Positions 6,663-23,597 of a stretch of DNA of 64,000 bases are shown piece after piece (position 1 is the stretch's first letter; each line of letters opens with the position of its first letter). The translations under genes were made by a program, and so were the position numbers. The stretch comes from a virus: IMG/VR virus record IMGVR_UViG_3300020183_000009; one strand, given 5' to 3'. The notes beneath the pieces are model-generated. The model was not told the DNA's origin. It saw nothing but the letters and a program-made list of their open reading frames with translations, and ran no database searches.

Positions 6663-6974
6663 ATGAAATCAGAATTAAAAGGTATTGTTAAGTATATTGA
6701 GAAAGTGTACAACCCATCTAAGATTAAAATTATTAATTATGTAGAATTTATCAATGAACCTCTTGTTAGTCTTTTCTTTGATGAAATTAGTGATGACTTT
6801 ATAACCAACCCTCAGTCAAATAACATTAAACGATTAAAAGAAAAAAATTTGGAAAGACAAATCAGGAAGGATATATATAACTACTTCGGTGTTATGACCT
6901 CGGGTTTAACTCTTGATGGGTCTTCTCCCTATACTTTCCATGGTTTGACTATTGATGTTCATTTAAGGGATTAG
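6663..6974 (+). CDS. Hypothetical protein
   Basis: Start moved to MKSELK directly after TATTTATATTTAT. Confidence 0.7.
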   Translation: MKSELKGIVKYIEKVYNPSKIKIINYVEFINEPLVSLFFDEISDDFITNPQSNNIKRLKEKNLERQIRKDIYNYFGVMTSGLTLDGSSPYTFHGLTIDVHLRD

Positions 6975-7441
6975 TTATTCTCTAAATTATCCATATAGTA
7001 ACCTAAAACCATATTAAAGATATCATCTAATATATCTTTTGGTAGTTCTTCATAGTGACGATATGTTTCCCCTAAATCTGTTTCATATTTATATCCCCCA
7101 TAATGGAATACTGCAACATCTTCTTTATATATCATTTCTATTTGTGAAAGTTTACCGTCTTCATCCCTAAGAACTATCGGGTTTTCATTCATATCCATTA
7201 GTGTGATATATTCATCTTCATCATCGTTAGTGTGAGCGGTTGTCTCTACTATCTCTTTGATAATCTTAATCTTATTGTTTGTTGACAGGAACTCATCCCC
7301 TAAAATACTTAGAAGGTCTTCTACACTTCCGACCATCTCTGCGGTCTTTAGAAATCCCAGCTTACTTGCCAGAATTAATAACTTCATTTGTTTTTCGGTT
7401 TCTTCCCTTAATATTCTTCTTATGGATTCTTGTAGGTTCAT
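6971..7441 (-). CDS. MNLQE-leader protein with short helical (HTH-like) module
   Basis: MNLQESIRRILREE; LGFLKTAEMVG. Confidence 0.85.
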   Translation of the reverse strand: MNLQESIRRILREETEKQMKLLILASKLGFLKTAEMVGSVEDLLSILGDEFLSTNNKIKIIKEIVETTAHTNDDEDEYITLMDMNENPIVLRDEDGKLSQIEMIYKEDVAVFHYGGYKYETDLGETYRHYEELPKDILDDIFNMVLGYYMDNLENN

Positions 7442-7947
7442 TATGATTGGTAATCAAAATCGTAGTTTATTATATGTTCTGGCGATATAATACCTTCATA
7501 CGCTATTGCTCCCCATATATCAATACTCTCAATTATTTTATCTTCATCAGTATTGGCTTTATTCCATTTATATTGATTCATAATATAATCATCGTCCCAC
7601 GTAATTTTATTAGGATTTAATTGAGTAACATCAATTGTTAATCTAACAATAGGTTTTTCATCTTCTTCGTTCTCATAGTAATCATCCATAATGTCCATTA
7701 AATCTTGTGGTAAGTTTGCCCCATATAAACTAGATTTATTTGTTAAAAACACACCCTGAATCCCTTTTTCATAAAAAGAGTTTGGGTATTTTCGGGGGAT
7801 TAAACCTTCTTCTTGTATTTCGTCCAAATTATGTGTTGGGGTATAATGATATAGATATTTACCCTTAATAAGGTATGGTTTTAATTTATCTATTAAACTA
7901 TTAAATTCTTCCCTTAATACTCTTCTTATGGTTTCTTGTAGGTTCAT
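7441..7947 (-). CDS. MNLQE-leader protein, Tpt1/ART-like fold
   Basis: LYHYTP..NLDEIQEEGLIP...VFLT...I.P pattern. Confidence 0.7.
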   Translation of the reverse strand: MNLQETIRRVLREEFNSLIDKLKPYLIKGKYLYHYTPTHNLDEIQEEGLIPRKYPNSFYEKGIQGVFLTNKSSLYGANLPQDLMDIMDDYYENEEDEKPIVRLTIDVTQLNPNKITWDDDYIMNQYKWNKANTDEDKIIESIDIWGAIAYEGIISPEHIINYDFDYQS

Positions 7948-7948
7948 A

Positions 7949-8359
7949 TTATTCAGTTCCTTTATGTATTAATGTTAGTGCCTGAGGAGGGATTCTATCA
8001 AATGTGACGATATGTTTGTCTTGTTTTTCAGAAAATAAATGAGTGTCTTCATACCACACCACATCGGGTATCATTGATGTATCTATCGCCCATACATCAC
8101 CATCCCATTTTGTTGCAAACCATTGTTTTGGGTTTTTACTATTTGTTGCAAATATCGCAGGTTTACATTTGGTTATACTCATAATTCCAACATATTCCTT
8201 ATAACAAAAACCAACTTTAGGTATTAAACCATTTTCCATAATTGATTTTCTATTTTTTTTATCTGACTTATGAATTATAGTTTTTTTTGGTTTAACAATA
8301 TCTCCTTCAGGTGAATAAAGTTCCCTTAATACTCTTCTTATGGTTTCTTGTAGGTTCAT
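7949..8359 (-). CDS. MNLQE-leader protein, Tpt1/ART-like fold (paralog of 12572 N-domain)
   Basis: IIHKS..NRKSIMENGLIP...AIFATNS...HIVTFDRIP. Confidence 0.75.
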   Translation of the reverse strand: MNLQETIRRVLRELYSPEGDIVKPKKTIIHKSDKKNRKSIMENGLIPKVGFCYKEYVGIMSITKCKPAIFATNSKNPKQWFATKWDGDVWAIDTSMIPDVVWYEDTHLFSEKQDKHIVTFDRIPPQALTLIHKGTE

Positions 8360-8428
8360 TTATAAATTTTTTATTGGTAGTTTATCTACACCAAGTAAAT
8401 TTAATAGATTAGCTCTATGGTTAAAAAT
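8360..8428 (-). pseudogene. C-terminal remnant of a ParB/Srx-like gene
   Basis: IFNHRANLLNLLGVDKLPIKNL* with no start, in frame after the upstream stop. Confidence 0.35.
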
Positions 8429-9223
8429 TTAGATAGTTCCATACATATAATTATTTTTCAATTTCATGTCTTTAATAAACTTATCATAAGACGCTTTATA
8501 TGATTTTTGTGTTTCATCGTTAGCGTTTTTGGTATATTGCCAGTTCCAATAAAGTTTGTCGTTAGGTTTGAATCCATAAAATCGATGAACTTCTTTTTGT
8601 ATTTCAGTGACGTTCTCACCATTCCAATTTTGTCCAACACAAATGAACCCTGTTTCAATATTTTTAACAAGGTTTGATTCACCAAGTGTTGTGTGTCTGT
8701 TTTCAATCCAATTTAATCTTTCCATTAAATTCTGATAGTACATGTTTGCTTGTCCCCACCTAATTGAAGAAAAGAATAACAAAGCATCTGATTCAAATAA
8801 CTCCTTTGATACTTTCCATAGTTGGTCTGACGGTTCGTTAATGTTTACCCAACATCTATGATGACCTGATGGGTTCTTTTTCTTATCTTTGAGCATTGCT
8901 TTTAACAACCCACAAGAGTTTCCATCGGCTCTTGATACATTACCTTCACAAGGAAGTATTTTAAGTTCTGTGATATCTATTAAAACCGCCTTATCACCAA
9001 GTTCTTCTTTGATGTGTAGTGCTAATAGTTTTGATTTCGGAATGTCGGGTTTTTTGGGGTCGAATTGGTATCTATTTGAACATGAAAGTAAAAGAACTTT
9101 ATCTTTCTTTTTTAAGATGTCTATGGTTTGTTTTAGTTTTTTATAACCATCACTTTGCACCATTTCTTCTGACAACATAAGTTGTCTTAATCTCACTAAT
9201 TCTTCTTCTAAAATAGACTTCAT
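8429..9223 (-). CDS. Flavodoxin-like / NADPH-dependent FMN reductase fold protein with ILEE..LSEE leader
   Basis: LLLSCSNR, ILPCEG, ESDALLFFSSIRWG..MERL pattern. Confidence 0.7.
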   Translation of the reverse strand: MKSILEEELVRLRQLMLSEEMVQSDGYKKLKQTIDILKKKDKVLLLSCSNRYQFDPKKPDIPKSKLLALHIKEELGDKAVLIDITELKILPCEGNVSRADGNSCGLLKAMLKDKKKNPSGHHRCWVNINEPSDQLWKVSKELFESDALLFFSSIRWGQANMYYQNLMERLNWIENRHTTLGESNLVKNIETGFICVGQNWNGENVTEIQKEVHRFYGFKPNDKLYWNWQYTKNANDETQKSYKASYDKFIKDMKLKNNYMYGTI

Positions 9224-9247
9224 AATAATAAATATCACCTAACTTGT

Positions 9248-9490
9248 TTGTTAGATAAAGAGTTTTCCTTATATTTGAATTATGAAACTATTGAAGTATC
9301 TTATCATATATCGAACAACCAAGAACCTGTATTGAAATACTCAGATAAACCTAATGTGGAAGTTCCTAAATCTATGTGTAAAAAAGAAGAACTAATGAAA
9401 TCATTAGATTATCTTAAAAGTAAAAAGAGCCCAACAAAACAAGACAAAGAGTCTATCTACACTATTGAAATGGTATTAAAGAATATGTGA
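9248..9490 (+). CDS. Small hypothetical protein (start uncertain, possibly 9374)
   Basis: ORF track. Confidence 0.4.
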   Translation: MLDKEFSLYLNYETIEVSYHISNNQEPVLKYSDKPNVEVPKSMCKKEELMKSLDYLKSKKSPTKQDKESIYTIEMVLKNM

Positions 9491-9493
9491 TTG

Positions 9494-10726
9494 TTATACA
9501 AAAACTTTGGGTAGTTCATCCCATGATGTTGTATATTTTTGTGTGATGTAATCCTGTCTCATTTCCCAATCGTGAGTTTCGTTGAAAGGTTTTTCAACCA
9601 TATCAAACACATCGTTAAACATTGATGCTTGAATAACTTTGTCAGATGTAAGTTCGTTAAATACAATACCACACTTTTTATACTTCTCTGACTTTTGACA
9701 CAACTTTTTATATTGTTCATAAATCTGTGACCATATTAAATCGGTATCTCGAGTTGGTGTTTGAAGTTTAATTGTTTTGGAATGGTGGTACTTATCTCCT
9801 TTGTGATAATTTCCTGATACGAATATGGTTGCTTTATTCGCAAACAATCCGTTTTCTTTTAGTTTCTTCACTCCGTTTTGTATATACGTATACATTGCTT
9901 CACCAAGTTGGTTAAAGTCCTCCACATCCTTTCCAAATGAACGAGTGGATGCGATATTTCTTTTTGGTTTAGATTGTTTTTGAATTGGGTGGCAGTATAA
10001 CCCCAACAACTCTAACTTTGTTTTTAGTCCATTTATATTCATTAACTTTCTTACCGTGTAGTCACTCATATTCATAAATTGACCCACAGAATTAACTTCA
10101 ATGTTTTTTAATTTTTTAGCCCATTTTCTACCAATCCCCCAAACCTCATCAACATCAATTTCATAACACATATTTCTAAAATTTGGTAAATCCCAAAATG
10201 AACATACCCCGTTATAGTTTATCTGTTGTTTAGCTAAAAAGGATGTTAGTTTAGCTAAAGTTTTATTTGGACCAACACCAATAGATACTGGTATTCCAAC
10301 TTTTTTTCTCACTTCTTCTTTAATTGCAAGAAGTGTTTCATTGAGCTCTTCTTGTGGTATGTTTGAAAAGTCCACAAATGCCTCGTCAATAGAATAAACC
10401 TCAATGTCATTTCCAAACTCACCAATCACTTTCATAACTCTATCTGACATATCACCATACAAGTTGTAGTTTGATGAATACACACAGAATCTATGTTCGT
10501 CCATAAACTCACGACTTTTAAAGAATGGTTCACCCATTTTAATTCCGAGAGCCTTTGCTTCTTGTGAACGAGCAATAACACACCCATCATTATTTGATAA
10601 TACAACGGTAGGTCTACCAATAGATTCAGGATTAAATAATCTTTCACAACTTACATAAAAGTTGTTACAATCAATAATTCCAATCTTTCTTACATTTTCT
10701 TCAGTACCCATGTTACTTTTCCCCAT
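9494..10726 (-). CDS. umuC: Y-family DNA polymerase V subunit UmuC
   Basis: [38 protein letters not shown]-terminal YTTSWDELP. Confidence 0.95.
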
Positions 10727-11007
10727 AAGTTTTTTTGTCCTTTGAACTCTCTAAGTTTGAAATATGTTTTGTCTGTTAAAATAACGAGGTCACCTTCTTT
10801 TGGTTCTTCATTTCGGTCAATAACAATTGTATCACCGTTATTTACACCAAAGACATTCGGACCTGAATACTTGAAGTAAAATGTTGTATAGTGGTCTTTT
10901 ACAATCAAATCATTCAAGTCAAGGCGTTTATCAACGTAGGTTTCAGCAGGTGATGCGAACCCTGTTGTTGTTGCGTTAATGTGAATTGGATTTTGGTGTC
11001 TTAACAT
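10690..11007 (-). CDS. umuD: UmuD-like S24 protein (catalytic residues apparently lost)
   Basis: [24 protein letters not shown]; directly upstream of umuC. Confidence 0.8.
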
Positions 11008-11045
11008 ATATTAAAAGATAAGAAAAGTAAACCATAAAAAAAAGA

Positions 11046-11073
11046 AAAATCCCCAACTTTTTTGTGGGGATTT
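11046..11073. terminator. Intrinsic terminator
   Basis: aaatcccca...tggggattt hairpin. Confidence 0.7.
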
Positions 11074-11076
11074 GTA

Positions 11077-11241
11077 TTATTTTTTAGACCATTCTTGATA
11101 CTCCCTTCTATCTTTTATAATAGTAGGAACAATAAATAATATTATGGACAACCAAAGATAAATCATTTTTTTAACCAAGTCCGTTTTTTTAGTACCAGTT
11201 TCTTCCCTTAATACTTTTCTTATGGATTCTTGTAGGTTCAT
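11077..11241 (-). CDS. 54-aa MNLQE-leader membrane peptide (not in ORF track)
   Basis: MNLQESIRKVLREETGTKKTDLVKKMIYLWLSIILFIVPTIIKDRREYQEWSKK*. Confidence 0.7.
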   Translation of the reverse strand: MNLQESIRKVLREETGTKKTDLVKKMIYLWLSIILFIVPTIIKDRREYQEWSKK

Positions 11242-11537
11242 AAATTAATATTTTCTTTATACCATTTATGTAATCTATTACCAAATACATCCATAATTTT
11301 TGAATGTAGTTTTGGGTCGTAATATCCATTTTCATCACCACAATTACTTCTTATATATGCCGTTAATATTATTTGGTAACTATACCAATCCAATTGTCTT
11401 CTTCTTACTGGTATAGTTTCTTCCCCATTCTCTAATTTTTTTATGTATTCATCAATACAATAATATCTTCTTCTGATATACAGTGGAATTTCTATTTCTT
11501 CCCTTAATATTCTTCTTATGGATTCTTGTAGGTTCAT
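11238..11537 (-). CDS. MNLQE-leader protein (IRRR family)
   Basis: Start moved to MNLQESIRRILREE; TATTTAT upstream. Confidence 0.8.
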   Translation of the reverse strand: MNLQESIRRILREEIEIPLYIRRRYYCIDEYIKKLENGEETIPVRRRQLDWYSYQIILTAYIRSNCGDENGYYDPKLHSKIMDVFGNRLHKWYKENINL

Positions 11538-11550
11538 ATTGATATAAATA

Positions 11551-11931
11551 TTAAATAAATGTATCTTTATACTCTTCAAAATATTTATCAAATTCAGAAT
11601 AATTTTCAAAAAGTTCTTGTCCTATTTCGATATCTTCAAGAGCTATTACTATTTCATTTAAAATTTTAAGATTAGGTTGACTACTATGATTAACAAAATT
11701 TGTTAAATCACAAGAAGAATAGTAATAATCACCATCTATCCAACCATATTTATCAAAATATTCTTGTTGGGCTTTAGACATCTGTTTTACACAATCAACA
11801 GAAACTTTAATATCGACACCATCCACAAATTCCCAAACGGTAGCACCTTTTGGTATAAATTCTAAAGCAAATAAACCTAACCCCATTATTGGATTTGTGG
11901 CTACTTTAACTTCTGTTCTAAATAAAAACAT
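11551..11931 (-). CDS. SET-domain lysine methyltransferase
   Basis: GLGLFA..FIPKG, FVNHSSQPN, ALEDIEIGQELFENY. Confidence 0.85.
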   Translation of the reverse strand: MFLFRTEVKVATNPIMGLGLFALEFIPKGATVWEFVDGVDIKVSVDCVKQMSKAQQEYFDKYGWIDGDYYYSSCDLTNFVNHSSQPNLKILNEIVIALEDIEIGQELFENYSEFDKYFEEYKDTFI

Positions 11932-11934
11932 TAT

Positions 11935-12570
11935 CTATTTTTCATTTTGTTTTTTAAAATCTGTAATATAACTTTCATCAGTAAAATATCCTCTAGTAGA
12001 ATCTACTGTGTAAATATTTCTGTCAATTATATATCCTGGATTTTTATTAATTCTACTGAAAGTATATGCTTTGTCTATCCATATTATTCTATTGTTTGGA
12101 TAAATAAAATAATTTCCATTATCCATTTTAAAAAAATGACCACATTTGTGTTCAGTTGTTTCAGAAAAATTAGTATCTAACATTACTTTATTTTCGTGTG
12201 ACCAATCTAAAGTAAACATATAAACCCCAAGTCTTTTAACACCTGTTATCGAAATTAATTCTGCACTCAAGGGATAAAGTCTTGCTCTTACTTGAACATC
12301 AATATAAGGACTAAAACAATCCCAATATACGTGTTCAGTTAAGGGTAAAACTTCTGCATCTTTTTTCCAAGCAAAAGCATGTATTGGTCTTCTAGTCCAA
12401 TTGACACCATTTTCTAATAAAGCTTCGAATAAAGGAACCATCCCTTCTACCGAAGCCACTGAATGGATATTTGCAGTTGTAAACTCACCGTGTCCTTTTT
12501 CGTGATTAAATAAAAATTCATTTCTAATAAAACAAGGAGTGATTGGTAAATTATGATTTAGGTACGACAT
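11935..12570 (-). CDS. Conserved phage hypothetical protein
   Basis: 211 aa ORF, typical composition. Confidence 0.75.
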   Translation of the reverse strand: MSYLNHNLPITPCFIRNEFLFNHEKGHGEFTTANIHSVASVEGMVPLFEALLENGVNWTRRPIHAFAWKKDAEVLPLTEHVYWDCFSPYIDVQVRARLYPLSAELISITGVKRLGVYMFTLDWSHENKVMLDTNFSETTEHKCGHFFKMDNGNYFIYPNNRIIWIDKAYTFSRINKNPGYIIDRNIYTVDSTRGYFTDESYITDFKKQNEK

Positions 12571-12571
12571 A

Positions 12572-13924
12572 TTATTTCTTTTTTATTTTTACACAATTAG
12601 GGTATCTCTTACCAAACATTGTTTTCATTCCTTTTTGAGTATAACCTGGCCAACACTTTTCAGTTAATTCTGCTTCAGTATGTTCTTGTTTCTGTAACCT
12701 AATGGTTTTCTCTTTTGACTTTTCTTTCACCGATTCAATATAATCATACGCTCTTTTTAACCTTTGTTTTGTTTCAGGGTCTTTTGCGTTTTGATAAGCC
12801 GCTCTTACTCTTTGATGGATAAGATTAATAATTTGTGATTGTCTTTTATGAGGTTTAGATTTAAAACTATCTTTGTTTAGTGTATCTACAATATCTTGTT
12901 TTGTTCTAAACTTTACAGATACTGTATCATTTGGATTTTCATCGGTATACAATCTTCTACCAGAACCTTCAGGTTTTTTTCCCGTTCCTGTCTTGGGGTC
13001 AGATTCATTCATTGTGTCTCTTGTATACTTTCTAAATCTTTGAGGGTTTGCTTTTATCGCTGACTTAGAAAATCTTAATCCATAACCTTGTCTTCTTGCA
13101 TTTTTTAGTGTTCTTGCGTATTCATCAAGTTCTTGTTCATCATTATCTATTATGTCTAATGTTTTGATGTTTGTTGAACTTTTAATCATTTTAGGAGCCA
13201 CTCCCTCATTATTTGCTTCTTCCCACCTTTTTGCACATAAACACCATTTGTCACCAGGTTCTAACATATGAAGATTGTTTCCCATTGATTTGGTAAACTC
13301 TAAAAACTCTTCTGTTACTCTTGCACACACCGTATGACTTCCTGTGTCGTCGTTTCCTGTTCTACAATACCCATCTCTATAATAACCTGTCATTGGTTTT
13401 TTTGAGCAGATTTTAAGTTTCTCACCATAGAGATTCTTATCTTCGGTAAATTCTTCCCTTAATATTTTTCTTATGGATTCATATAAGTTTGGTGAATTTT
13501 TATTCCATTTTTTTACATCACCACTTCCTGTTCCCTCATATTTTAGAGTTATCGCTTCTTTTGGTATGTCTTGGAATGTTACAATATGTTTTTTTGTTGA
13601 CTCAAAATGTCTATCTTTATACCACTTAACATCAGGAATCATTTCTGTATTAATTTCCCATATATCATCATCATATGTTGAATCAAACCATGCTCTTTTA
13701 TTTGTTGAGTTGGTTGCAAATATTGCGGGTTTACATTTAACTCCATAACCAACATATACTTTGTAACATTCTCCTGCCCTTACTTTAAGTCCGTGTTCCA
13801 TTATCTTATCTCTAAACATTGGATTTGATTTGTGAATAACAATATTATTTGGAATGATTTCTTTTCCTGCTGGTGAATAATCATCTTCCCTTAATATTCT
13901 TCTTATGGTTTCTTGTAGGTTCAT
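12572..13924 (-). CDS. MNLQE-leader multi-module protein: Tpt1/ART-like domain + DUF2237 + basic modules + CWxGY..PNCVK module
   Basis: Internal ESIRKILREE; PMTGYYRDGYC..HTVCA..GDKWCLCAKRW (DUF2237); C-terminal module shared with 22364. Confidence 0.8.
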   Translation of the reverse strand: MNLQETIRRILREDDYSPAGKEIIPNNIVIHKSNPMFRDKIMEHGLKVRAGECYKVYVGYGVKCKPAIFATNSTNKRAWFDSTYDDDIWEINTEMIPDVKWYKDRHFESTKKHIVTFQDIPKEAITLKYEGTGSGDVKKWNKNSPNLYESIRKILREEFTEDKNLYGEKLKICSKKPMTGYYRDGYCRTGNDDTGSHTVCARVTEEFLEFTKSMGNNLHMLEPGDKWCLCAKRWEEANNEGVAPKMIKSSTNIKTLDIIDNDEQELDEYARTLKNARRQGYGLRFSKSAIKANPQRFRKYTRDTMNESDPKTGTGKKPEGSGRRLYTDENPNDTVSVKFRTKQDIVDTLNKDSFKSKPHKRQSQIINLIHQRVRAAYQNAKDPETKQRLKRAYDYIESVKEKSKEKTIRLQKQEHTEAELTEKCWPGYTQKGMKTMFGKRYPNCVKIKKK

Positions 13925-14697
13925 TTTGTTAAATCAATATACCAAACTTTTATTGGTTCAACTCCCATCTGTAAAGCAATTGTACTTCTTTTATGTCCAC
14001 CAATTAAAATATACTCATTACCTTCTCTATCATTAGTATTAAGTTTTATAACAAATGGTGCTGGAAGTTCTCTTGGTTCATCTTTTTTTGCATAGTCTCT
14101 TTGTTGTTCTATATTTCCGATATATCCACCAAGCTGGTCTTTGTATTCTGAATCTTTATATTGTTTTGTAAACCCACCTGTTGTCGTATCTTTATATTCG
14201 GGGTCCCATTCCATAAACTTTCCAAGTTTACCCATATAGAAAGTTTTATCTGTATTATCAATATATTCTCCTGTTTGGGGGTCTGTACCTTTCCAAACTT
14301 TCATCACACCTTTGTTGAAGAAATTAAATGCCTCTTTTTGTGACTTAGTATCATTAATTAAAACATGTCTGAAATTACCCCAATCATCCATCAATTCATG
14401 TATTTCTTTATTCAATAATAAATTTTTGATTTCTTCATCACTTTCCAATTCTTCCCCTTTAGAATGTTCCGCAATCATTTTGAATGTATGAGGAAATAAA
14501 GAATACATTTGGTCAAAGTTATCAGGGTGAAAGAATTCCCCTTTTGAAAACCTCATCTCATTTCCCAACAATTCACTCAACTCTTGTCTAAAGTATTCTT
14601 GTGTTGGTTCTAACCATTCTACTTTGTATGGATTAGTCACTTCAGTAAGAAGTCCCATCATTTGTTTAATTCTTGATATGTTTTCTTGTAGGTTCAT
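13921..14697 (-). CDS. MNLQE-leader protein with C-terminal ParB/Srx-like domain
   Basis: YILIGGHKRSTIALQMGVEPIKV. Confidence 0.7.
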   Translation of the reverse strand: MNLQENISRIKQMMGLLTEVTNPYKVEWLEPTQEYFRQELSELLGNEMRFSKGEFFHPDNFDQMYSLFPHTFKMIAEHSKGEELESDEEIKNLLLNKEIHELMDDWGNFRHVLINDTKSQKEAFNFFNKGVMKVWKGTDPQTGEYIDNTDKTFYMGKLGKFMEWDPEYKDTTTGGFTKQYKDSEYKDQLGGYIGNIEQQRDYAKKDEPRELPAPFVIKLNTNDREGNEYILIGGHKRSTIALQMGVEPIKVWYIDLTK

Positions 14698-14900: not shown

Positions 14901-14906
14901 ATAATT

Positions 14907-16085
14907 TTAGTTTTTTTCAAATTGTCTATTTATAACTTTGAACCTTGTAATTTCCTCAAATGGTAGTATCATTGCCCCAAAATCTTTGTTACTTAACTGA
15001 ATTACTTTTTTCATAGTACCATCTTTTTGTTTTTCTTCCCAACTTCCATTGAAAGTCCAAACCTTGTTTGTTTTTTCATCAAATACCTCATCACCCCCAT
15101 TTGGTTCCAAATTTTTATATTTTTCTATTTTTTGTTTTATTGTTTCTTCTGTTTCATTTTCTAAACTATCATACCAATCATAATATACTTGACCCAACCT
15201 ATCAATCAAACTTTGAGACGCCCTAACAGAATTTTTGTCTGTGTATTTTTTTTCAACAAAGTTTTTGAATATTTCTTCTACATTCAGATTAGTATTTTTA
15301 TCAAAAATTAAAATTTGTTTCTGAAGAAGTAATGTCATCAAATCCTTTTCATACTTTGGGTTTGTTACCAAATCTTGATACACCATTTTTATTGCCGCAC
15401 TGTTACCCATACTACTTGTTATGTAACCAAGTTTTTTTATCATTTCAAGATAAATTAAAGTACCAAGACCTTTGCCCCTCAACTTATCAGGAACACCTTT
15501 AGGAAAGTGTATTCTATTTTCTGTTGGTTCTAATGTTACATAAATATTTCTTTCTTCCATAGACAACTGTTCTCTACATTCATCGGGTAGTTTAATTTTG
15601 TAAACTTTTGCTCCAGGCTCTCTTACCCAATAACTTTCAAGTGATTTATCACCTTTGGCAACCATTGGGCCAAGTATTTCAAAATTTGTTGGGTCACAAT
15701 TTACCTTATCAGATACTTGATTTGGTTTTTGGTCGAGTAATTTTGTATTAAAATATTTCTCAAAAGCCCGTTTCAAGAAATTATTAAAGGCTCTTTTTCC
15801 ATCGGCTTTTAACGAATTTAAATATCTATTATCAATCTTTATATCATCTTGTAAAATTACCTCTCCATATTTACCATAGTCTTTAACAATAGAATTTTTG
15901 AATTTTACAAAATCTCCACCCGATTCTTTAAGTTTTGGTTCGAATATTATTATAAGTTCATCTGTGTATTTATCAAAATATTTTATATTCATAGTTAGAT
16001 AGGAATCGTCAGGTAAATCTGTTACCACTTCTTTCAGAAGTCCCATCATTTGTCTGATTCTCTGTATGTTTTCTTGTAGGTTCAT
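14907..16085 (-). CDS. MNLQE-leader protein with GNAT-like domain
   Basis: VPDKLRGKGLGTLIY acetyl-CoA-binding motif A. Confidence 0.7.
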   Translation of the reverse strand: MNLQENIQRIRQMMGLLKEVVTDLPDDSYLTMNIKYFDKYTDELIIIFEPKLKESGGDFVKFKNSIVKDYGKYGEVILQDDIKIDNRYLNSLKADGKRAFNNFLKRAFEKYFNTKLLDQKPNQVSDKVNCDPTNFEILGPMVAKGDKSLESYWVREPGAKVYKIKLPDECREQLSMEERNIYVTLEPTENRIHFPKGVPDKLRGKGLGTLIYLEMIKKLGYITSSMGNSAAIKMVYQDLVTNPKYEKDLMTLLLQKQILIFDKNTNLNVEEIFKNFVEKKYTDKNSVRASQSLIDRLGQVYYDWYDSLENETEETIKQKIEKYKNLEPNGGDEVFDEKTNKVWTFNGSWEEKQKDGTMKKVIQLSNKDFGAMILPFEEITRFKVINRQFEKN

Positions 16086-16100: not shown

Positions 16101-16535
16101 TTACCATAAATTATCAGAAATATATTTCTTTACTATAATTTTCATAACATCCCCCAATTTGAAATCAACTACTTCTTTGACATATTTAGAATATTCTCTA
16201 CTCTGTTGAGTTTTCCCCAAATAAACACTTAAACAATATTCAGTAGAACACCAATATTTACCTTCACCTAAATTACTACCCAAAGTTATACCATCCTTGT
16301 ATAAAACTTTATGAAGTTTTTTATTATCAAAGTCAACGAATTTTTTATTGAATTCTTTACCACTTATTACATTTGATTTTTTAATTTCAAATTTAGAATA
16401 TACTTTTAACTTTTTTGGTTCTGTGAACAGTACAATCCCGTTTTCTTCATATATCGGGTCATACAAACCATCAATTAAAATATCTTTATTTAATTCTTCC
16501 CTTAATATTCTTCTTATGTTTTCTTGTAGGTTCAT
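16101..16535 (-). CDS. MNLQE-leader hypothetical protein
   Basis: MNLQENIRRILREE. Confidence 0.8.
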   Translation of the reverse strand: MNLQENIRRILREELNKDILIDGLYDPIYEENGIVLFTEPKKLKVYSKFEIKKSNVISGKEFNKKFVDFDNKKLHKVLYKDGITLGSNLGEGKYWCSTEYCLSVYLGKTQQSREYSKYVKEVVDFKLGDVMKIIVKKYISDNLW

Positions 16536-16558
16536 AATAATAAATATCATATATTTAT
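16533..16558. promoter_or_regulatory. Divergent TATTTAT promoter pair, copy 1
   Basis: cataataataaatatcatatatttat, identical to 18876-18901. Confidence 0.65.
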
Positions 16559-16564
16559 CTTTAT

Positions 16565-16876: not shown

Positions 16877-16898
16877 TAGAGTATTTATATAATGTAAT

Positions 16899-17324
16899 AT
16901 GAAATACTTAATTACCGAAAATAAAACCAAAAAACTATTACTTAACTTAATTAATAATGGTGAAGTTGATACCGCATCTGATTTAGTTGGTGGTGTTAAT
17001 AATTTAATTAAAATTGTTGGTAGGTCAAAAATTATGGATATTATCTTAAATAAATTTGATGATTTAAAAATTGAACATAGAGGAGGTGATGTAGTGTTAA
17101 TCAGTGGAGGTTTATCCTTAATGGAAACATCTTGGATAGGTTTAATTGTATATGATGATTATATCAAATATCGTATTGGGGATGAATTAGTAGATTTTTA
17201 TACTGATAATAGGAAATCTTTAATTGAGAAATTGGTTTCTAGTTTTCCTGAATTATATAGTGATGAAGTTAGAGTTTACAAAGACAGTGGTAGGTATTTT
17301 AAAATTACCGAGTTTACTTTTTAA
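16899..17324 (+). CDS. MKYLITE-leader protein
   Basis: Leader plus helical module like 6971. Confidence 0.8.
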   Translation: MKYLITENKTKKLLLNLINNGEVDTASDLVGGVNNLIKIVGRSKIMDIILNKFDDLKIEHRGGDVVLISGGLSLMETSWIGLIVYDDYIKYRIGDELVDFYTDNRKSLIEKLVSSFPELYSDEVRVYKDSGRYFKITEFTF

Positions 17325-17656
17325 TCCCCACAGTTAGTGTGGTAATATTTTTCTAATTCTGCACCGTATTTCAGTCTTAAATATTCTTCCATTAATCGGA
17401 ATAATTTTTCCCACTCTTTTGACGTATCATCAATATGGTCAAAATGAATATAATAGATGTAGTCATTAATTATATTATAAATTAGATATTCTATAAATTC
17501 ATCTGAATTACGGTATTTACAAATCTTATGAGGACCATAAGTATTTCTAACTAATTCAATCAACAAATTATCTAACTCATGAAAACGTCTTCTAATAAAC
17601 ATTTCATCTGACGTTTCTTCTTTTAATATTCTTCTTATAGATTTTCTTATATTCAT
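17321..17656 (-). CDS. Leader protein (MNIRKSIRRILKEE, IRRR family)
   Basis: Start moved to the leader. Confidence 0.8.
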   Translation of the reverse strand: MNIRKSIRRILKEETSDEMFIRRRFHELDNLLIELVRNTYGPHKICKYRNSDEFIEYLIYNIINDYIYYIHFDHIDDTSKEWEKLFRLMEEYLRLKYGAELEKYYHTNCGD

Positions 17657-17657
17657 C

Positions 17658-18878
17658 TTACCACTGTCTTTTTTCATTAGGGTATGTGTTAATAACATCT
17701 TCTACATCAACCGTAACATTACTAATCCATTTACGTAATCTATATTGTAATTCACTAATAAATGTTTCTTCGTCATGAAAGTGCATCATGGCTTCATATT
17801 TTATAACAACTAATATCCTTGGTATTCCATTAAGTTTATCTACGGCAGTTACTTTAACCTTTGGGTCTAATTCAAGAAAATCACAAGCGTCAAATGAAAT
17901 AAACTCTTCTTCATTTTCCGAATCCATATATTCGCAAATATTCTTCATTAAATCTATTTCATTGTCAATTAGTTTTTGTATCTTTTCTTTTCTATCAACT
18001 GTTAGTGTACTTTCCTTTATAATTTCATAACAATTATCTAATGAATCAAAAAAGAAATCTTCTATTTTTTTTTTATATCCTAAATCAATTAACATTTCAT
18101 ATATTTCTTCATAAGTGTCATGATAATTATCCGCATTTACACCTCTAATGGAAGTTAACATGATTCTTACTATATCAGACATTGTTTCGTTCACATAATT
18201 AACAACATCTATTCTCATTGGCCAATATATACAAACATCTTTAGGGTCCAAGTTTTGGATATAATCGTCAACAATAAAAAATCTTCTTCTGATTGATAAT
18301 AAATCAATCTCTTCTTTTAATATTCTTCTTATGGATTCTTGTAAATCAACACCACCACCATCTAATTTATCTGTAAACCCCATAAGTTTATCAAATGCTG
18401 GATGTGATTTAATTGGCTCTTTCTTCTTGTCTTTCATTTGGTCCCATGTTCTTGGTTTGACCTTCATATGATTCTTAACCAAATATTTAATTTCATCAAC
18501 ATCCGTTCCGTCAAACGAATCAATCCAATTTCTAAATTGTTCCACATAATCCGTTGATTTGTCTTCGTGACCATAAGCTGTTGGTTGATTTGTTTTTGGA
18601 TTAATTGAATAGGTATCCATCTTCCCTAAATCGTGAAACAATGCCGCCATAACCATATTTGGGTCGTCAGGATAGTGATGGTACGCTCTTTTTAATACAA
18701 CTAATATGTGTTTTAGTGTGTTCCCTTCTGGATGCCATTCAGGGTTTTGTTTTGCTCCCCATTGTTTGAATAACAATTTCTTTAATTCATCAGGTAAATT
18801 TTTAACTAACTGCTGAGGTGTTGCGTAAAGTTTGTCTTCCTCTTTTAATATTCTTCTTATTGATTGTTTTAGACTCAT
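17658..18878 (-). CDS. Leader-tagged multi-module protein: HD-domain phosphohydrolase + two further modules
   Basis: QNPEWHPEG..H, AALFHDLGK, HE, HM; internal LQESIRRILKEE. Confidence 0.8.
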   Translation of the reverse strand: MSLKQSIRRILKEEDKLYATPQQLVKNLPDELKKLLFKQWGAKQNPEWHPEGNTLKHILVVLKRAYHHYPDDPNMVMAALFHDLGKMDTYSINPKTNQPTAYGHEDKSTDYVEQFRNWIDSFDGTDVDEIKYLVKNHMKVKPRTWDQMKDKKKEPIKSHPAFDKLMGFTDKLDGGGVDLQESIRRILKEEIDLLSIRRRFFIVDDYIQNLDPKDVCIYWPMRIDVVNYVNETMSDIVRIMLTSIRGVNADNYHDTYEEIYEMLIDLGYKKKIEDFFFDSLDNCYEIIKESTLTVDRKEKIQKLIDNEIDLMKNICEYMDSENEEEFISFDACDFLELDPKVKVTAVDKLNGIPRILVVIKYEAMMHFHDEETFISELQYRLRKWISNVTVDVEDVINTYPNEKRQW

Positions 18879-18901
18879 AATAATAAATATCATATATTTA
18901 T
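18876..18901. promoter_or_regulatory. Divergent TATTTAT promoter pair, copy 2
   Basis: Identical 26 bp to 16533-16558. Confidence 0.65.
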
Positions 18902-18907
18902 GATTAT

Positions 18908-19342
18908 ATGAAATACTTAATCACAGAAAATCAGATGAAACCTATTCTTCATAAACTCCTTAATTCGGTTTTTAAGGGGTTTGATGATATCTATTATGAT
19001 TGGGCTAATTACAACTGTGGTATGGGTGTTTGTTGTGACCCATACGCTATAGGGTTTGTATTACCTAAAAATGATTACGATGATTATCTGTTTATGTTGG
19101 TCGACAATGAAAATTGGGAGCCTAACAGTAATTACCCTAAAGAATTAAGTGACGAATTACCTGAAATATGTTATGAATCGCCTGATATTAAAAATCCTGA
19201 CTTTAATTTGATTGTTTTTTATGAAGTCTTCTCCGAAGAGATTGAAAACTTTTTAGGTCCTCAAGACAATTGGAATTTTGAGTTAATTGATTTGATAAAC
19301 GAAATGTTTGGTTGTAATGCAACAAAAATAATCTTCATATGA
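18908..19342 (+). CDS. MKYLITE-leader acidic protein
   Basis: Leader; CGMGVCC cluster. Confidence 0.8.
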   Translation: MKYLITENQMKPILHKLLNSVFKGFDDIYYDWANYNCGMGVCCDPYAIGFVLPKNDYDDYLFMLVDNENWEPNSNYPKELSDELPEICYESPDIKNPDFNLIVFYEVFSEEIENFLGPQDNWNFELIDLINEMFGCNATKIIFI

Positions 19343-19650
19343 AGTATATCATAACTGAAAATCAACTACATAAACTGAATAAGGAAAATGTGAATCGCGG
19401 CAGATTCGGTCAACTTATAGAGGACATGGTTACTGAGTTCATTGGTCCTTCTAAAATTTGTGATATTGTAGCAATGTCATCCGAAATCAAAGGCGATAAA
19501 AAAAATTTTTATATAGTAGTTGTATTAACAAATAATTATGTTAGATATAATTTAAGTGGTGAAATTAGGAATTATGTTAAAACTTTTTTACCTGTCAACC
19601 TTTTTGTTAGTATCGATGAACGTACTTGTAATCCTCATGCTAGTTATTAA
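19339..19650 (+). CDS. MKYIITE-leader protein
   Basis: Leader; ATGA overlap. Confidence 0.8.
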   Translation: MKYIITENQLHKLNKENVNRGRFGQLIEDMVTEFIGPSKICDIVAMSSEIKGDKKNFYIVVVLTNNYVRYNLSGEIRNYVKTFLPVNLFVSIDERTCNPHASY

Positions 19651-19868
19651 GAATTAGAAATATCCTCAATATAAACTCTTCCCCCGAAATATTCTGATAT
19701 CACATATCTTCCGAGTGAATTCTCTCTGATTGTCATATAATGAAATCTATAGTCCTCACCAAATGTGTCAAGTCCGACCCATTTGATTTTGTTCTCTTTT
19801 ACTTCACAGTCAAGTGTTAAAGTTCTCTTGTTGTAGTATTTGTTGTTGATGTAAACTGTTGCTATCAT
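19647..19868 (-). CDS. Hypothetical early protein
   Basis: TATCTTTG promoter at 19886-19893; start MIATV. Confidence 0.65.
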   Translation of the reverse strand: MIATVYINNKYYNKRTLTLDCEVKENKIKWVGLDTFGEDYRFHYMTIRENSLGRYVISEYFGGRVYIEDISNS

Positions 19869-19981
19869 ATCTCTTATTGTTTCTACAAAGATACAACGCA
19901 AACAAAAAACCCACAACCTGTTAAAGTGTTGGTTTTATTTTACTAAATATAAAGTATTTATTGGTAGAGATATTTAATAGT

Positions 19982-20836
19982 ATGAAGTATTTTATTACAG
20001 AATCACATTTTAAAGAATATGTTCGTTTGTTATCTGAACAGGATGAACATGATTATTTAGATGATTATGATGATGAAGATTTTATTGAGGTTTTCTTCGA
20101 GTACTTCAGACCATGGGTAAAAACTAACCATGGTGAAGACGCTTCAAGATATCCAATGTCATACTTACTAAAAAAATACTTAGTGGAGTTTTGTAAATAT
20201 GTGGGAAGTGATGAAATTGATGATGATGATGATTATTGGTCATATACTCAATTAGAAAAAATTGGTAGGGAAATAGTTATTAGATTACAACATAAACTAC
20301 CTTCTCTATTACCGTCACATAAGTTTACTGAAAAATACACAAAACAAATAGATTTTATAATTAAAAATTTAAAGCTACCTTCTTGGTTGAATATATCGTT
20401 AACTGAGGAGAGACCTTATAATATCATAGTTAATTTTAAAATTGATTTTGATTTGTATTTAAAATCTGAAAATGATGATAGTGTTTATGATTATTTTGAG
20501 GAATTTAAATCTTATGTAAATCAATTTATGGGGTTTGAGGAAGGTAATCCTTCACATGGTCATATTAAGTTTGATAGTGATATAGAACTATTAAACAATC
20601 CTTTTAGTAATCCAAAGTTTGTTAAAGAGTTTAAATCCAAAATCAAATCTTTACCAGGTGGTGAAACAATACATATGATAAAAATATCTTACGACCAAAG
20701 TAGATTAAAAATCCATTTAAGTAGTAAAACTCGTCAATATATTAATTGGCCCGCAAGAGATAGATTCAGAAACATTGTTTATCAAATGTTAGAAAAAGAA
20801 GGTTATAATAAAGAAAAATTAAACATAACAATTTAA
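19982..20836 (+). CDS. MKYFITE-leader acidic protein
   Basis: Leader ...LLSEQ. Confidence 0.8.
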   Translation: MKYFITESHFKEYVRLLSEQDEHDYLDDYDDEDFIEVFFEYFRPWVKTNHGEDASRYPMSYLLKKYLVEFCKYVGSDEIDDDDDYWSYTQLEKIGREIVIRLQHKLPSLLPSHKFTEKYTKQIDFIIKNLKLPSWLNISLTEERPYNIIVNFKIDFDLYLKSENDDSVYDYFEEFKSYVNQFMGFEEGNPSHGHIKFDSDIELLNNPFSNPKFVKEFKSKIKSLPGGETIHMIKISYDQSRLKIHLSSKTRQYINWPARDRFRNIVYQMLEKEGYNKEKLNITI

Positions 20837-20842
20837 AATAAA

Positions 20843-21409
20843 ATGAAAAAGAATAAAATGTATTTAGCCAATTTACTTTCAGAACAAAGACATTTGTCAA
20901 GTAAATTAACATTAAGAGAACAAGATGAAAAAATTGTTGAGTCAAAGAAAAATGAAATAATTTCCACACTTGAGCAATTAAAATTAGCTCAAACAGGTAT
21001 GTTGGCGTCGATGAAAAAAGGTGAGATTGACAAACAAATAAAAGAGGTCCAATCTATCAACACTAAAAAAGTTTGTAATGGAAAAGAACTCGATGTTGAA
21101 ATATCTAAGAAGTTATCAGATGCCGAAAACAAACTTAAAGAATACGATAATCAGTTGGAGGATTGTAAAGAGGGTTGTAAATCAAAATTAAAAGCTCATA
21201 TTACATTTATTAGAGAGTTTTGTGGTAAACAAGGTTCTCAAGTCACTTCATCATCAACAACATTATCAAATAAAACAGGTAATGTTGCACCTCCACCTCA
21301 GATTGATAAGTCAACAACAGACACCTCAAAAAAATCTGATACAATTGTAAAAACTACAACGACAACCACAAGAAGTTATGGGGCAGGTTCTATTGAATCT
21401 TTTGTTTAA
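20843..21409 (+). CDS. Hypothetical protein (LSEQ/LREQ leader, Thr/Ser-rich tail)
   Basis: N-terminus resembles 697. Confidence 0.75.
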   Translation: MKKNKMYLANLLSEQRHLSSKLTLREQDEKIVESKKNEIISTLEQLKLAQTGMLASMKKGEIDKQIKEVQSINTKKVCNGKELDVEISKKLSDAENKLKEYDNQLEDCKEGCKSKLKAHITFIREFCGKQGSQVTSSSTTLSNKTGNVAPPPQIDKSTTDTSKKSDTIVKTTTTTTRSYGAGSIESFV

Positions 21410-21671
21410 CAACAATATAAGGAAGATTAATTTCTTTTTCAGATATGACAAACAACTCTTCAGGTATTAATTTTTTAAGTGTTGAGTTTAGATTATAAAT
21501 AATATATTGTTTATAGTTTTGTCTTATGAATTTATTCAGAGCGTAAAGTTTCTCACTATTTTTATAGTCAATTATGATTTCAATGTGGTATTTTTCACCA
21601 ACTTTTTCGATTGTAAAATTTTTTGTTTCGTAACCAACAATTGTTTTAATATTTTCTAATATTATACTCAT
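21390..21671 (-). CDS. Hypothetical protein
   Basis: TATATTTG promoter at 21676-21683. Confidence 0.6.
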   Translation of the reverse strand: MSIILENIKTIVGYETKNFTIEKVGEKYHIEIIIDYKNSEKLYALNKFIRQNYKQYIIYNLNSTLKKLIPEELFVISEKEINLPYIVVKQKIQ

Positions 21672-21730
21672 TTTGCAAATATATAACAAAAAATTGGATT
21701 TTAAAAACTATTTATAATAAAATAATAATC

Positions 21731-22339
21731 ATGTGTTATACTAAAGAACAAATAGAAAAGGCCGTTAAATCTAAAGGATATAAATGGTTTGAAGACACGT
21801 CAAACAAAAGTTATGATGTGAATATTGTAGGTGTGAGAAATACTTCACCTGCAGTTTATAAAAAAGTTACAAATGTTTTTGATGATTGTCTTACGATATC
21901 TTTCAAAGATGAAAAAGGTTTATGGCAATTTTATTGCTGGATGGCCACTTGTGACCCAGGTAAAAAAGGAGTTCAACAGTTTCATAATAAAAAAGGGGTG
22001 GCAAGATTAATTCCTGGTCAATACAGAACAACATACGCGGTTGATAAACACCAAGGTAAATACGAAGCCCTTTGCCAAAGACTTGGTAATGTTAATGTTT
22101 GGAGAGATGGTAATAGAGATTTAATTTTTGAAGAAACTGTGACAGATACTGGTATGTTTGGTATTAATATTCACAAGGCAGGTTTAGATTCAACTTGGGT
22201 TGAGAATTGGTCCGAAGGATGTCAGGTATTTAAACGTGTGAAAGACTTTGATGTATTTATGTCGATTTGTAGAAAAGCGGCTAAAATACATGGAAATAAG
22301 TTTTCATATACTTTATTAGAATCAACTGATATTAAATAA
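21731..22339 (+). CDS. L,D-transpeptidase (YkuD)-like cell-wall enzyme
   Basis: GINIH...WSEGCQV (H..SxGC). Confidence 0.6.
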   Translation: MCYTKEQIEKAVKSKGYKWFEDTSNKSYDVNIVGVRNTSPAVYKKVTNVFDDCLTISFKDEKGLWQFYCWMATCDPGKKGVQQFHNKKGVARLIPGQYRTTYAVDKHQGKYEALCQRLGNVNVWRDGNRDLIFEETVTDTGMFGINIHKAGLDSTWVENWSEGCQVFKRVKDFDVFMSICRKAAKIHGNKFSYTLLESTDIK

Positions 22340-22365
22340 AAAATGGGGGTTATAACCCCCATTTT
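22340..22365. terminator. Bidirectional terminator
   Basis: aaaatgggggt-tata-acccccatttt. Confidence 0.85.
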
Positions 22366-22855
22366 ATTTTACTTTTACACAGTTAGGATATCGTTTACCA
22401 AACATTGTTTTCATTCCTTTTTGAGTATAACCTTTCCAACATCGTTCATTGATTTCAATTCTGTCGTTATTTTCAGATTCGTTTTTTCTTGTGTTATTTT
22501 GATTATTGATTAAAACACGGATATTATTTCCAATAATTTGTTTTGTTTTCCATTGAAGTTGTATTTCAAAATCAGACAAGTCTTTATACTCCCTAATATA
22601 GTTGTAGTCAACATCAATTTTTATAAGTAAAAAAGAATCTTCTTTAGTTGTTTGTGTTTTTACAAAAACTTTTTGGACATCTACAACTTTTATTTTTTCT
22701 ATTACTTCAACTTCTTCACAAGTATAAGAATTAAGATAATAATTTTCACAATCTTCCTTCAAGTCTTCAAAAGCCATATCAATAAGACTTTGCATGGATT
22801 CAAAATTTGATTCCAATAACATTTTATACTGATTCTCTGTTATTATTATTTTCAC
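22364..22855 (-). CDS. IIITE-leader protein with C-terminal CWKGY..PNCVK module
   Basis: Probable GTG start overlapping the upstream TGA; body resembles the C-domain of 17658. Confidence 0.75.
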   Translation of the reverse strand: MKIIITENQYKMLLESNFESMQSLIDMAFEDLKEDCENYYLNSYTCEEVEVIEKIKVVDVQKVFVKTQTTKEDSFLLIKIDVDYNYIREYKDLSDFEIQLQWKTKQIIGNNIRVLINNQNNTRKNESENNDRIEINERCWKGYTQKGMKTMFGKRYPNCVKVK

Positions 22856-23181
22856 CAATTAAAGTTTTTTAATTCATTATACTTATCCCTTATTCTATCT
22901 ATATACATGTCCGTTAAATAATTTCTCACACCACCATAATCAAAATCTCTTGACCCCCAATTTGATAATTTACCATGGAGGTCGTCCATTAACACGTTCA
23001 TAACCAATTCCCTAAACTCTTTCATTTTAAGTAGTGGATATCTTTTAAAAAAATCTTTGCCGTAAATAAAACCTTCTTTTAACCCTTCTTCTATCTCTTC
23101 CTCAGTAACTCTTCGTCTAAGAAATAAACCTGCTTGGGTTTCTTCTTTTAATATTCTTCTTATTGATTCTTGTAAGTTCAT
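22852..23181 (-). CDS. MNLQE-leader protein (IRRR family)
   Basis: MNLQESIRRILKEE..FLRRR. Confidence 0.8.
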   Translation of the reverse strand: MNLQESIRRILKEETQAGLFLRRRVTEEEIEEGLKEGFIYGKDFFKRYPLLKMKEFRELVMNVLMDDLHGKLSNWGSRDFDYGGVRNYLTDMYIDRIRDKYNELKNFNW

Positions 23182-23597
23182 ATGTAATAAATGTCTATTA
23201 TTTCCACATTCTCAAAATTAGATATTGTAATCTCATATTCAAATGGATTCATCACTCTTGTTCTTATTGTTTGTTCAATATCTATTGAATCTTGGTTTAA
23301 GATTAAACCAACAAATATTTTATTACCAAACCCTTCCGCAACTCTTATATCTGTCGACCAATGTTCTCCACTGTAATCATCTTTTGGATTTTTAGTGTTA
23401 ATACCCCTATAAACTTTTATAGGGTACTTAATATTTTTAACATAATTAATTTGTTTTTGAATTAATATTAAAGCTTCTTCTTCATCATACATTTCATCCA
23501 TAAAATCCATAACATAAAAATCCTCTAAATAATAATTAGGGTCATACACATCTAACTCTTCCCTTAATATTCTTCTTATTGATTCTTGTAATTTCAT
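23178..23597 (-). CDS. MKLQE-leader protein, putative ADP-ribosyltransferase (R-S-ExE)
   Basis: VYRG...WSTD..VA..F...EYEI. Confidence 0.6.
   Translation of the reverse strand: MKLQESIRRILREELDVYDPNYYLEDFYVMDFMDEMYDEEEALILIQKQINYVKNIKYPIKVYRGINTKNPKDDYSGEHWSTDIRVAEGFGNKIFVGLILNQDSIDIEQTIRTRVMNPFEYEITISNFENVEIIDIYYI

Follow-up and report, generated by a model that had tools for sequence, protein, structure and literature searches.

A 64,000-nucleotide stretch of viral DNA (IMG/VR record IMGVR_UViG_3300020183_000009), hereafter called the window, carries many genes that begin with the same short coding sequence, named leader A, followed by bodies of very different kinds, named cargo. Comparison with close relatives identifies the 42-nt leader as the site at which homologous recombination has exchanged, reordered, fused and split the cargo genes. 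The peptide encoded by leader A resembles the signals that direct internal proteins of phage T4 into the capsid. The reading favoured here, with a probability of roughly 0.6, is that of a capsid-targeting-like tag whose coding DNA doubles as a crossover site for in-frame shuffling of cargo. Direct evidence is stronger for the role of the leader at the DNA level than for the loading of capsids. Recombination between leader copies had been proposed in an earlier examination of the bare sequence (the original prediction), and its claims are taken up below with the results that bear on them.

Leader A and its cargo

The 15-mer ATGAACCTACAAGAA is present in nine exact copies, all on the minus strand and each at the start of an open reading frame (ORF) (starts 7441, 7947, 8359, 11241, 11537, 13924, 14697, 16085, and 16535), whereas dinucleotide-preserving shuffles contain 0.36 on average and 2 at most. 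Near-copies with one mismatch at 23181 and two mismatches at 23597 are also gene starts. When the starts are aligned, near-identity spans about 42 nt (14 codons, encoding MNLQESIRRILREE) in seven of the nine exact copies. In the remaining two, at 14697 and 16085, the identity ends after 21 nt and a second tag type takes over (I-Q-R-I-K-Q-M-M-G-L-L type). A six-frame protein search revealed diverged N-terminal copies at 17656 and 18878, and two in-frame copies devoid of an ATG lie inside longer ORFs, at 13492 in the 450-aa ORF 12572-13924 and at 18350 in the 411-aa ORF 17658-18893. Leader A thus totals 15 copies in the window, including the two internal ones. Tagged neighbours overlap or are separated by 1-4 nt (7441, 7947/7949, 11238/11241, 13921/13924, and 23178/23181), and no Shine-Dalgarno sequence was seen upstream of the leader-bearing starts in the aligned start regions. 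The original prediction had listed the same nine copies, but neither the diverged ones at 17656 and 18878 nor the internal ones, and described the tight packing, which is confirmed at these five junctions. Its estimate that similarity typically extends over about 40 nt holds for seven copies but not for those at 14697 and 16085. It had also placed remnants of lost genes between the tagged ones: this holds only in part, with one possible remnant in the window, the 54-aa ORF 11077-11241, and with a truncated 55-aa copy and a frameshifted duplicate in relatives as further candidates.

An exact search with a 27-nt leader pattern retrieved 42 IMG/VR loci, on contigs of up to 304 kb, in which homologous genes show 67-95% DNA identity to the window. 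Across the window and the loci, leader A begins or lies within 118 distinct ORFs, whose bodies form about 69 families when clustered at 60% mutual coverage. Some of these are real paralog families, such as the 'hydrophobic-RRR' family, with at least 15 members, and the two ADP-ribosyltransferase (ART)-like copies at 8359 and 13924. Others carry domains that can be recognised independently and that set in just a few positions behind the tag, including DUF2237 (E = 9e-39) and an HD domain. The fused ORF 12572-13924 assembles four modules, namely an ART-like module, DUF2237, a basic DPK-GTGKKP module, and a C-terminal CW-GY module. In an AlphaFold model, the tag forms a helix over residues 3-13 (pLDDT near 50), followed by a disordered linker and then by a confident ART/Tpt1-like domain, and the tag is accordingly appended to the cargo fold in this model rather than built into it. 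The top Foldseek match of this domain is KptA/Tpt1, followed by other proteins of the ADP-ribosyltransferase fold (probability 1.0, with a modest TM-score of about 0.45). Searches of Pfam and PHROGs found no family for most of the cargo. When the 40 N-terminal residues of one tagged gene product were used in a protein-word search, only orthologs of that gene were returned, so that this search is no measure of how widely the tag is spread.

Genome-wide codon bias, against which the original prediction was to be judged, is rejected as the cause of leader identity. With the window's own ORFs as the reference for codon usage (15,340 codons), five leader positions hold minor codons in nearly all copies: AAC (27% of Asn), CTA (10% of Leu), TCC (6% of Ser), ATA (35% of Ile), and AGG (14% of Arg). 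Per-codon P values range from 1e-5 to 4e-8, with AGG in eight of eight copies (P about 2e-7) and CTA in nine of 11 (P about 4e-8). Another tag of the same genome, M-K-Y-L/I-I-T-E followed by N, S, or Q (the MKYLITE type), is equally conserved as a protein, but its synonymous sites vary freely; protein-level selection on a tag alone therefore does not give DNA identity in this genome. Across genomes, the exact leader is found in all four near-complete relatives, whose capsid genes are 75-78% identical in DNA. The original prediction had also called for synonymous divergence to be compared between leader and body: for the same cargo family on different contigs, with bodies 50-70% identical, identical amino acids use the same codon in 77% of cases in leader codons 10-14 and in 58% in the bodies. 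Codons 10-14 lie outside the search pattern, and the 77% figure is thus free of that ascertainment.

What holds this consensus in place is a separate question. Leaders of non-homologous genes show 4.92 differences within a contig and 4.88 between contigs (permutation p = 0.59), and within-genome concerted evolution is rejected on this basis. Since leaders are equally alike within and between contigs, simple gene conversion inside a genome is not the explanation, and the private leader variants common to some neighbouring genes count, given this negative test, as anecdotes only. Predicted folding does not set the start region apart from shuffled sequence (z-scores -1.3 to +0.9), and no Rfam family matches at the leader. 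Two candidates remain for keeping the consensus, a pool of leader-plus-cargo cassettes moving between co-infecting phages, or direct selection on the nucleotides. We infer that DNA conservation is maintained because of recombination.

Exchange of cargo at the leader

Of the relatives, contig G006 (loci L035, L056, and L080) stands closest to the window, with 93-95% nucleotide identity over shared cargo. Cargo genes are reordered, fused, or split in G006, and gene order is scrambled relative to the window. One such junction is the leader of L056:452-1303. When compared base by base, the sequence upstream of it matches the 99-aa gene 11238-11537 of the window, the sequence downstream matches module 1 of the gene starting at 13924, and only the 42-nt leader is common to all three. 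A different rearrangement concerns DUF2237, which is encoded in G006 by a stand-alone gene with an ATG leader (L056:3312-4232), whereas the window has it as a continuation of module 1, joined through the internal leader at 13492. G006 has an internal leader of this kind after module 1 as well, with another body behind it. The leader at 13492 proves chimeric when set against G006. On its 5' side, where codon 9 is AAA, it agrees with the internal leader of G006; on its 3' side, starting with the AGG of codon 12, it agrees with the leader of that contig's DUF2237 gene, which places the crossover between codons 9 and 12.

Comparison with all loci extends this picture. Blocks of at least 150 nt and at least 80% identity, with ends inside the array, have 14 of their 21 informative ends within 10 nt of a leader, whereas leaders and this margin cover about 5% of the region; the 21 ends are not independent and correspond to about eight distinct boundaries at leaders and four elsewhere. 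A typical block consists of a leader, a body, and the next leader. Identity to any one relative varies between 69% and 95% over adjacent genes, and gene-to-gene jumps of this kind read as the signature of frequent exchange. As for the enzymes involved, the tyrosine integrase family PF00589 has no match in five relatives, and the Pfam-scanned ORFs of the array contain no recombinase domain. A RecA/UvsX-like ORF is present in all four near-complete relatives, none of which encodes a tyrosine integrase.

These results agree with the original prediction on several counts. Its proposal that recombination between leader copies reorders cargo is supported by the G006 junctions and the chimeric leader at 13492, breakpoints do concentrate where it had expected them, with homology to G006 switching partner in the leaders, and the array does appear to be integrase-free. 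Its statement that each new gene gains both the tag and a start codon has to be qualified, since the in-frame tag is kept but the start codon is sometimes lost, as in the fusions through an internal leader.

A gene of contig G002 (173195-173950, locus L071) has the first 21 nt of the leader at its start, joined directly to the 'hydrophobic-RRR' cargo motif, and looks like the product of a deletion or of a crossover within the tag.

A proposed capsid-targeting-like tag in T4-like phages

Judging from the gene content of its relatives, the window belongs to a large phage of T4-like type. All four relatives that CheckV rates 99-100% complete have genes for a major capsid protein of the gp23 type and for a prohead protease of the gp21 type (Peptidase_S77), and the S77 protease is also found in four of four further near-complete contigs bearing tagged cargo, which were taken from a set fetched by cargo similarity. 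The T4-like head-gene region of G002 includes large terminase, portal, protease, and capsid genes, identified by PHROG and Pfam matches, and a scaffold-like ORF assigned by position and sequence only. In the same contig, a 317-aa ORF adjoining the capsid gene starts with a leader-A-like peptide. Sequenced isolates gave no match to the array by megablast and no protein match to the 109-aa tagged gene, and the closest capsid protein among isolates, from Flavobacterium phage immuto, is 41% identical. Promoters of the TAnnTTTG type are characteristic of Bacteroidota. The presence of this motif before several genes of the window, the lack of Shine-Dalgarno sequences, and the many lipoprotein-like signal peptides indicate that a bacterium of that phylum is the probable host.

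The leader A peptide is a 13-14-residue amphipathic N-terminal helix with two [LI]-x-E sites, LQE at position 5 and LRE at position 13. In T4, the internal proteins (IPs), Alt, and gp24 enter the prohead by means of N-terminal propeptides of 6-20 residues, and the gp21 protease cuts after [LI]-x-E (PMC9026906, PMC5694885). The T4 propeptides end in ...IAE in IPII and IPIII and in ...LRE in gp24, and that of Alt is MELITE (record AF158101). The MKYLITE tag closely resembles this 6-residue Alt propeptide, and all other tag types seen in G002 end in [LI]-x-E.

The site was also examined independently of the leader, in 80 viral loci fetched by cargo similarity alone. The D-P-K-x-G-T-G-K-K-P module (window 12575-13009, minus strand; loci L080-L159), which is present in about 230 IMG/VR contigs, occurs there in 49 distinct contexts; what precedes it is either a short tag, of which there are at least five unrelated kinds, or a long N-terminal domain. 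The three residues that precede the P1' residue of the module are [LIVM]-x-E in 40 of the 49 contexts. In Pelagibacter phage HTVC033P, the same module is a bare 96-aa protein with neither an extension nor a [LIVM]-x-E site. The C-terminal C-W-x-G-Y ... N-C-V-K module is found in two window proteins (12572-12700 and 22364-22460, minus strand) and shows 85-90% DNA identity between the window copies and many relatives. It also occurs in long modular basic proteins of T4-like cyanophages (L160:1721-3274 and L161:753-3737). One protein in which it follows an x-E site, ORF29 of cyanophage S-SCSM1, is a virion protein by record annotation only; a virion proteome obtained by mass spectrometry has been reported for this phage (PMC9602691), and ORF29 is not confirmed among the detected proteins.

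Promoter-like motifs connect the tagged genes with the head genes. In G002, [AG]TATTTAT precedes 78 of 362 genes, including those of the head protease and the scaffold, several others of the head region, and many tagged genes. The same motif lies 4-7 or 12-17 nt before the start codons of 23 of the 117 ORFs of the window. Within tagged runs of the window it stands only before the first gene of the run, and most MKYLITE-type copies have a TATTTAT motif of their own upstream. Other window genes are preceded instead by the Bacteroidota-type TAnnTTTG (3494, 19647, 42638, and 62933), which suggests two promoter classes.

Taken as a capsid-targeting-like sequence, by analogy with T4, the tag could act as follows. 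TATTTAT promoters would drive the transcription of whole runs of tagged genes, with coupled translation, and the tag would bring unrelated proteins (ART/Tpt1-like, DUF2237, HD, and small basic modules) to the core of the prohead. Cleavage by the gp21-type protease, at one of the two [LI]-x-E sites or at both, would then release the tag, and the cargo could be injected along with the phage DNA. Since the sites are retained in internal tags, the protease would also split the product of a fused ORF, for instance 12572-13924, into its individual modules. On the DNA side, so many direct repeats of 42 nt, all in the same orientation, would offer enough homology for the phage's own recombination, probably of the UvsX type; less than 50 bp suffices in T4 (PMC2839356). 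Unequal or inter-genomic crossovers could thereby delete, duplicate, replace, fuse, or split cargo, and, because the crossover falls in frame inside the tag, every product would keep it. A broader proposal, held more tentatively and at somewhat short of even odds, is that an entire clade of T4-like Bacteroidota phages, 150-300 kb in size, maintains a large, fast-turning arsenal delivered by the capsid, in which any gene placed behind the leader is loaded, cleaved, and injected, the tag DNA serves as recombination site, and single genes and polyproteins interconvert, in an integron-like manner but with no dedicated recombinase.

Alternative explanations and known systems

Could the leader be explained otherwise? 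An ordinary paralogous family, in which tandem duplication was followed by fast divergence of the bodies while protein constraint and recency preserved the leader, would account for the paralog groups that do exist among the cargo. It is nevertheless very improbable, given that unrelated domains such as DUF2237, HD, and ART/Tpt1-like start right after the tag, that protein constraint does not demand identical minor codons, and that the junctions with the closest relative show exchange and not divergence in place. A cis-acting signal in the mRNA would treat recombination as a by-product, the leader being either the operator of a translational regulator or an unstructured, purine-rich start for translation or re-initiation without a Shine-Dalgarno sequence. 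The missing Shine-Dalgarno sequences and the unremarkable folding of the start region are in keeping with such a signal, and a consensus held across genomes with such divergent capsid genes, without genome-specific homogenisation, fits purifying selection on nucleotides. However, the internal copies keep the same DNA although they are not start sites, MKYLITE-tagged genes of the same genome are translated without conservation of their DNA, and about one quarter of comparable codons carry synonymous changes, all of which makes such an mRNA signal unlikely. The absence of a match to a RegA-type regulator in the relatives is uninformative on this point, as that search had no positive control.

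A further possibility accepts recombination but not the capsid: the tag could dock a shared partner or chaperone, set the timing of proteolysis, or serve some other localisation. Some of the observations that weigh against the preferred reading also give room to this one. Packaging and cleavage in this clade are predictions by analogy; the window contains no structural (head) gene, the protease and capsid genes being seen in relatives only; and at its short length the tag cannot be aligned with the T4 capsid-targeting sequence (CTS), to which no homology can be demonstrated, the likeness to the ipII/ipIII propeptide being a loose one of pattern (hydrophobic-Q-E-x-I, with E at the end). Several tag types exist, and the number of tagged ORFs is very high: among the 117 ORFs of the window, strict patterns count 24 and inspection by eye about 35, compared with three internal proteins in T4. 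The [LI]-x-E motif is short, and only weakly enriched at the N-termini of G002 proteins (120 versus 101 proteins). Other difficulties concern recombination itself: leaders coincide with gene starts, and the enrichment of breakpoints is partly one of gene boundaries; two classes of breakpoint lie away from leaders, at 12574 (a stop codon adjoining the SET-domain insert) and at 13002/13011 (a module boundary); synonymous identity in codons 10-14 is raised but not absolute; and leaders are no more alike inside a contig than between contigs. Yet all tag types end in [LI]-x-E, the same cargo stands behind interchangeable tags with the site at the junction, the clade encodes a T4-type protease of that very specificity, tagged and head genes have a promoter-like motif in common, and one cargo module recurs in an annotated virion protein of a T4-like cyanophage. 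A non-capsid function is accordingly considered improbable, though it deserves to be taken seriously, and the capsid-targeting-like tag is retained as the preferred reading.

In function, the closest counterpart is the T4 CTS, together with the variable ip genes found in T-even phages (Mullaney & Black 1996 as reviewed in PMC9026906; PMC3012670; PMC12373910). In both cases, a short N-terminal propeptide ending in the gp21 motif [LI]-x-E is common to unrelated, non-essential proteins, the phage has a T4-type protease and capsid (here read from relatives), and the cargo includes an enzyme of the ADP-ribosyltransferase fold, as is T4 Alt. In addition, the first 32 nt of T4 ipII and ipIII are identical, similar to the sharing of leader A at the DNA level. 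The differences are nonetheless considerable. The leader A tag has another sequence, is longer (13-14 residues), and offers two candidate sites; genomes carry dozens of tagged genes instead of the three of T4, arranged on one strand in long arrays where stop codons overlap the start codons that follow, and also fused in frame with tags left inside; the hosts belong to another group; and packaging is a prediction here. Shuffling at the T4 ip locus has moreover been ascribed to promoter-plus-stem-loop elements, conceptually related to PeSLs, and not to the CTS coding sequence (PMC2839356).

PeSLs themselves (PMC2839356; PMC4122927) provide a close parallel for recombination. These short conserved repeats lie on either side of variable ORFs within a hyperplastic region, and the places where close relatives differ fall at the repeats, as is also found for leader A; without an integrase, they are thought to use the phage's own recombination with less than 50 bp of homology. 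However, a PeSL is an intergenic promoter-plus-terminator, whereas leader A is coding, in frame, and unstructured, and recombinants inherit a promoter from the former but a protein tag from the latter. Integrons resemble the array in having promoterless cassettes in the same orientation with a repeated recombination site at each boundary, but here no IntI-type integrase was matched, the site lies inside coding sequence, and it is not an attC-like structured site; an integron is thus ruled out by the lack of a structured site and of any PF00589 match in five relatives. Polymorphic toxins and type III effectors formed by 'terminal reassortment' join a conserved delivery module to swappable cargo at a conserved junction. 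In those systems delivery relies on bacterial secretion, whereas here the phage capsid would deliver and the junction lies at the extreme N-terminus. What is new is a recombination handle located inside the coding sequence that bears the tag, the arrangement of dozens of tagged genes in arrays, and the interconversion of single genes and polyproteins, which the in-frame position of the handle explains.

Should the tag be a capsid-loading signal, these uncultured phages would send a far larger number of proteins into the host along with their DNA than T4, among them enzymes with an ADP-ribosyltransferase fold or an HD domain, and the tagged genes would constitute a catalogue of candidate injected proteins for host takeover and anti-defence. 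An in-frame recombination handle would be a simple means of recruiting new genes into a delivery pathway without a recombinase. The leader, together with an [LI]-x-E junction, could serve as a search key for injected cargo in metagenomes. The T4 CTS is already used in E. coli for packaging foreign proteins into capsids, and the present tag is a candidate for doing so in capsids of Bacteroidota phages. The features of the window are listed in Table 1.

Table 1. Leaders, other tags, promoter-like motifs, and an untagged insert in the window
Feature	Position	Strand	Basis
Leader A; start of 156-aa cargo gene 6971-7441	7400..7441	-	exact 15-mer, 42-nt alignment
Leader A; start of 168-aa cargo gene 7441-7947	7906..7947	-	exact 15-mer, 42-nt alignment
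Leader A; start of 136-aa ART/Tpt1-like cargo gene 7949-8359, homologous to module 1 of 13924	8318..8359	-	
Leader A; start of 54-aa ORF 11077-11241 (possible remnant); crossover site relative to G006	11200..11241	-	
Leader A; start of 99-aa cargo gene 11238-11537; leader internal in ortholog L056:39-455	11496..11537	-	
Untagged insert between tagged genes: SET-domain gene 11551-11931 and 211-aa gene 11935-12570	11551..12570	-	
Internal leader without ATG; joins ART-like to DUF2237 module; chimera of two G006 leaders	13451..13492	-	
Leader A; start of 450-aa fused ORF 12572-13924	13883..13924	-	exact 15-mer, 42-nt alignment
Second tag type; start of 258-aa gene 13921-14697; G006 homology block ends 3 nt away	14656..14697	-	
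Second tag type; start of 392-aa gene 14907-16085	16044..16085	-	exact 15-mer, alignment
Leader A, codon 6 as in second tag type; start of 144-aa gene 16101-16535; TATTTAT 4 nt upstream	16494..16535	-	
Diverged leader A; start of 111-aa gene 17321-17656	17615..17656	-	protein search, alignment
Internal in-frame leader inside ORF 17658-18878	18309..18350	-	protein search, alignment
Diverged leader A; start of 406-aa HD-domain fused ORF 17658-18878; TATTTAT 4 nt upstream	18837..18878	-	protein search, alignment
Leader A, 1 mismatch in 15-mer; start of 109-aa gene 22852-23181	23140..23181	-	
Leader A, 2 mismatches in 15-mer; start of 139-aa gene 23178-23597	23556..23597	-	
MKYLITE-type tags	16899, 18908, 19339, 19982, 34577, 37129	+	
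MKYLITE-type tags	22858, 40358, 46264	-	
[AG]TATTTAT, examples	upstream of 16535, 18878, 9223, 25983, 1764, 33385, 58079		

Some other features of the window and its relatives deserve mention. The untagged insert 11551-12570 has no counterpart in any relative examined, and looks like an insertion made without a leader. Genes for UmuC-like (Y-family polymerase) and UmuD-like proteins lie in the middle of the tagged region (9494-11007, minus strand); they show 81% DNA identity in G002 and G009 and are absent at that position in G006. The 269-kb contig G003 (L043, L047, L051, and L052) has two sets of prohead protease and gp23-type capsid genes, at about 31-35 kb and 233-237 kb, which have no DNA similarity to each other and may represent either a chimeric assembly or two head modules. 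Finally, a run of mini-genes occupies 48628-49981 on the minus strand, each ending in ...T-F-K-S-E, with the start codon of the next one directly after.

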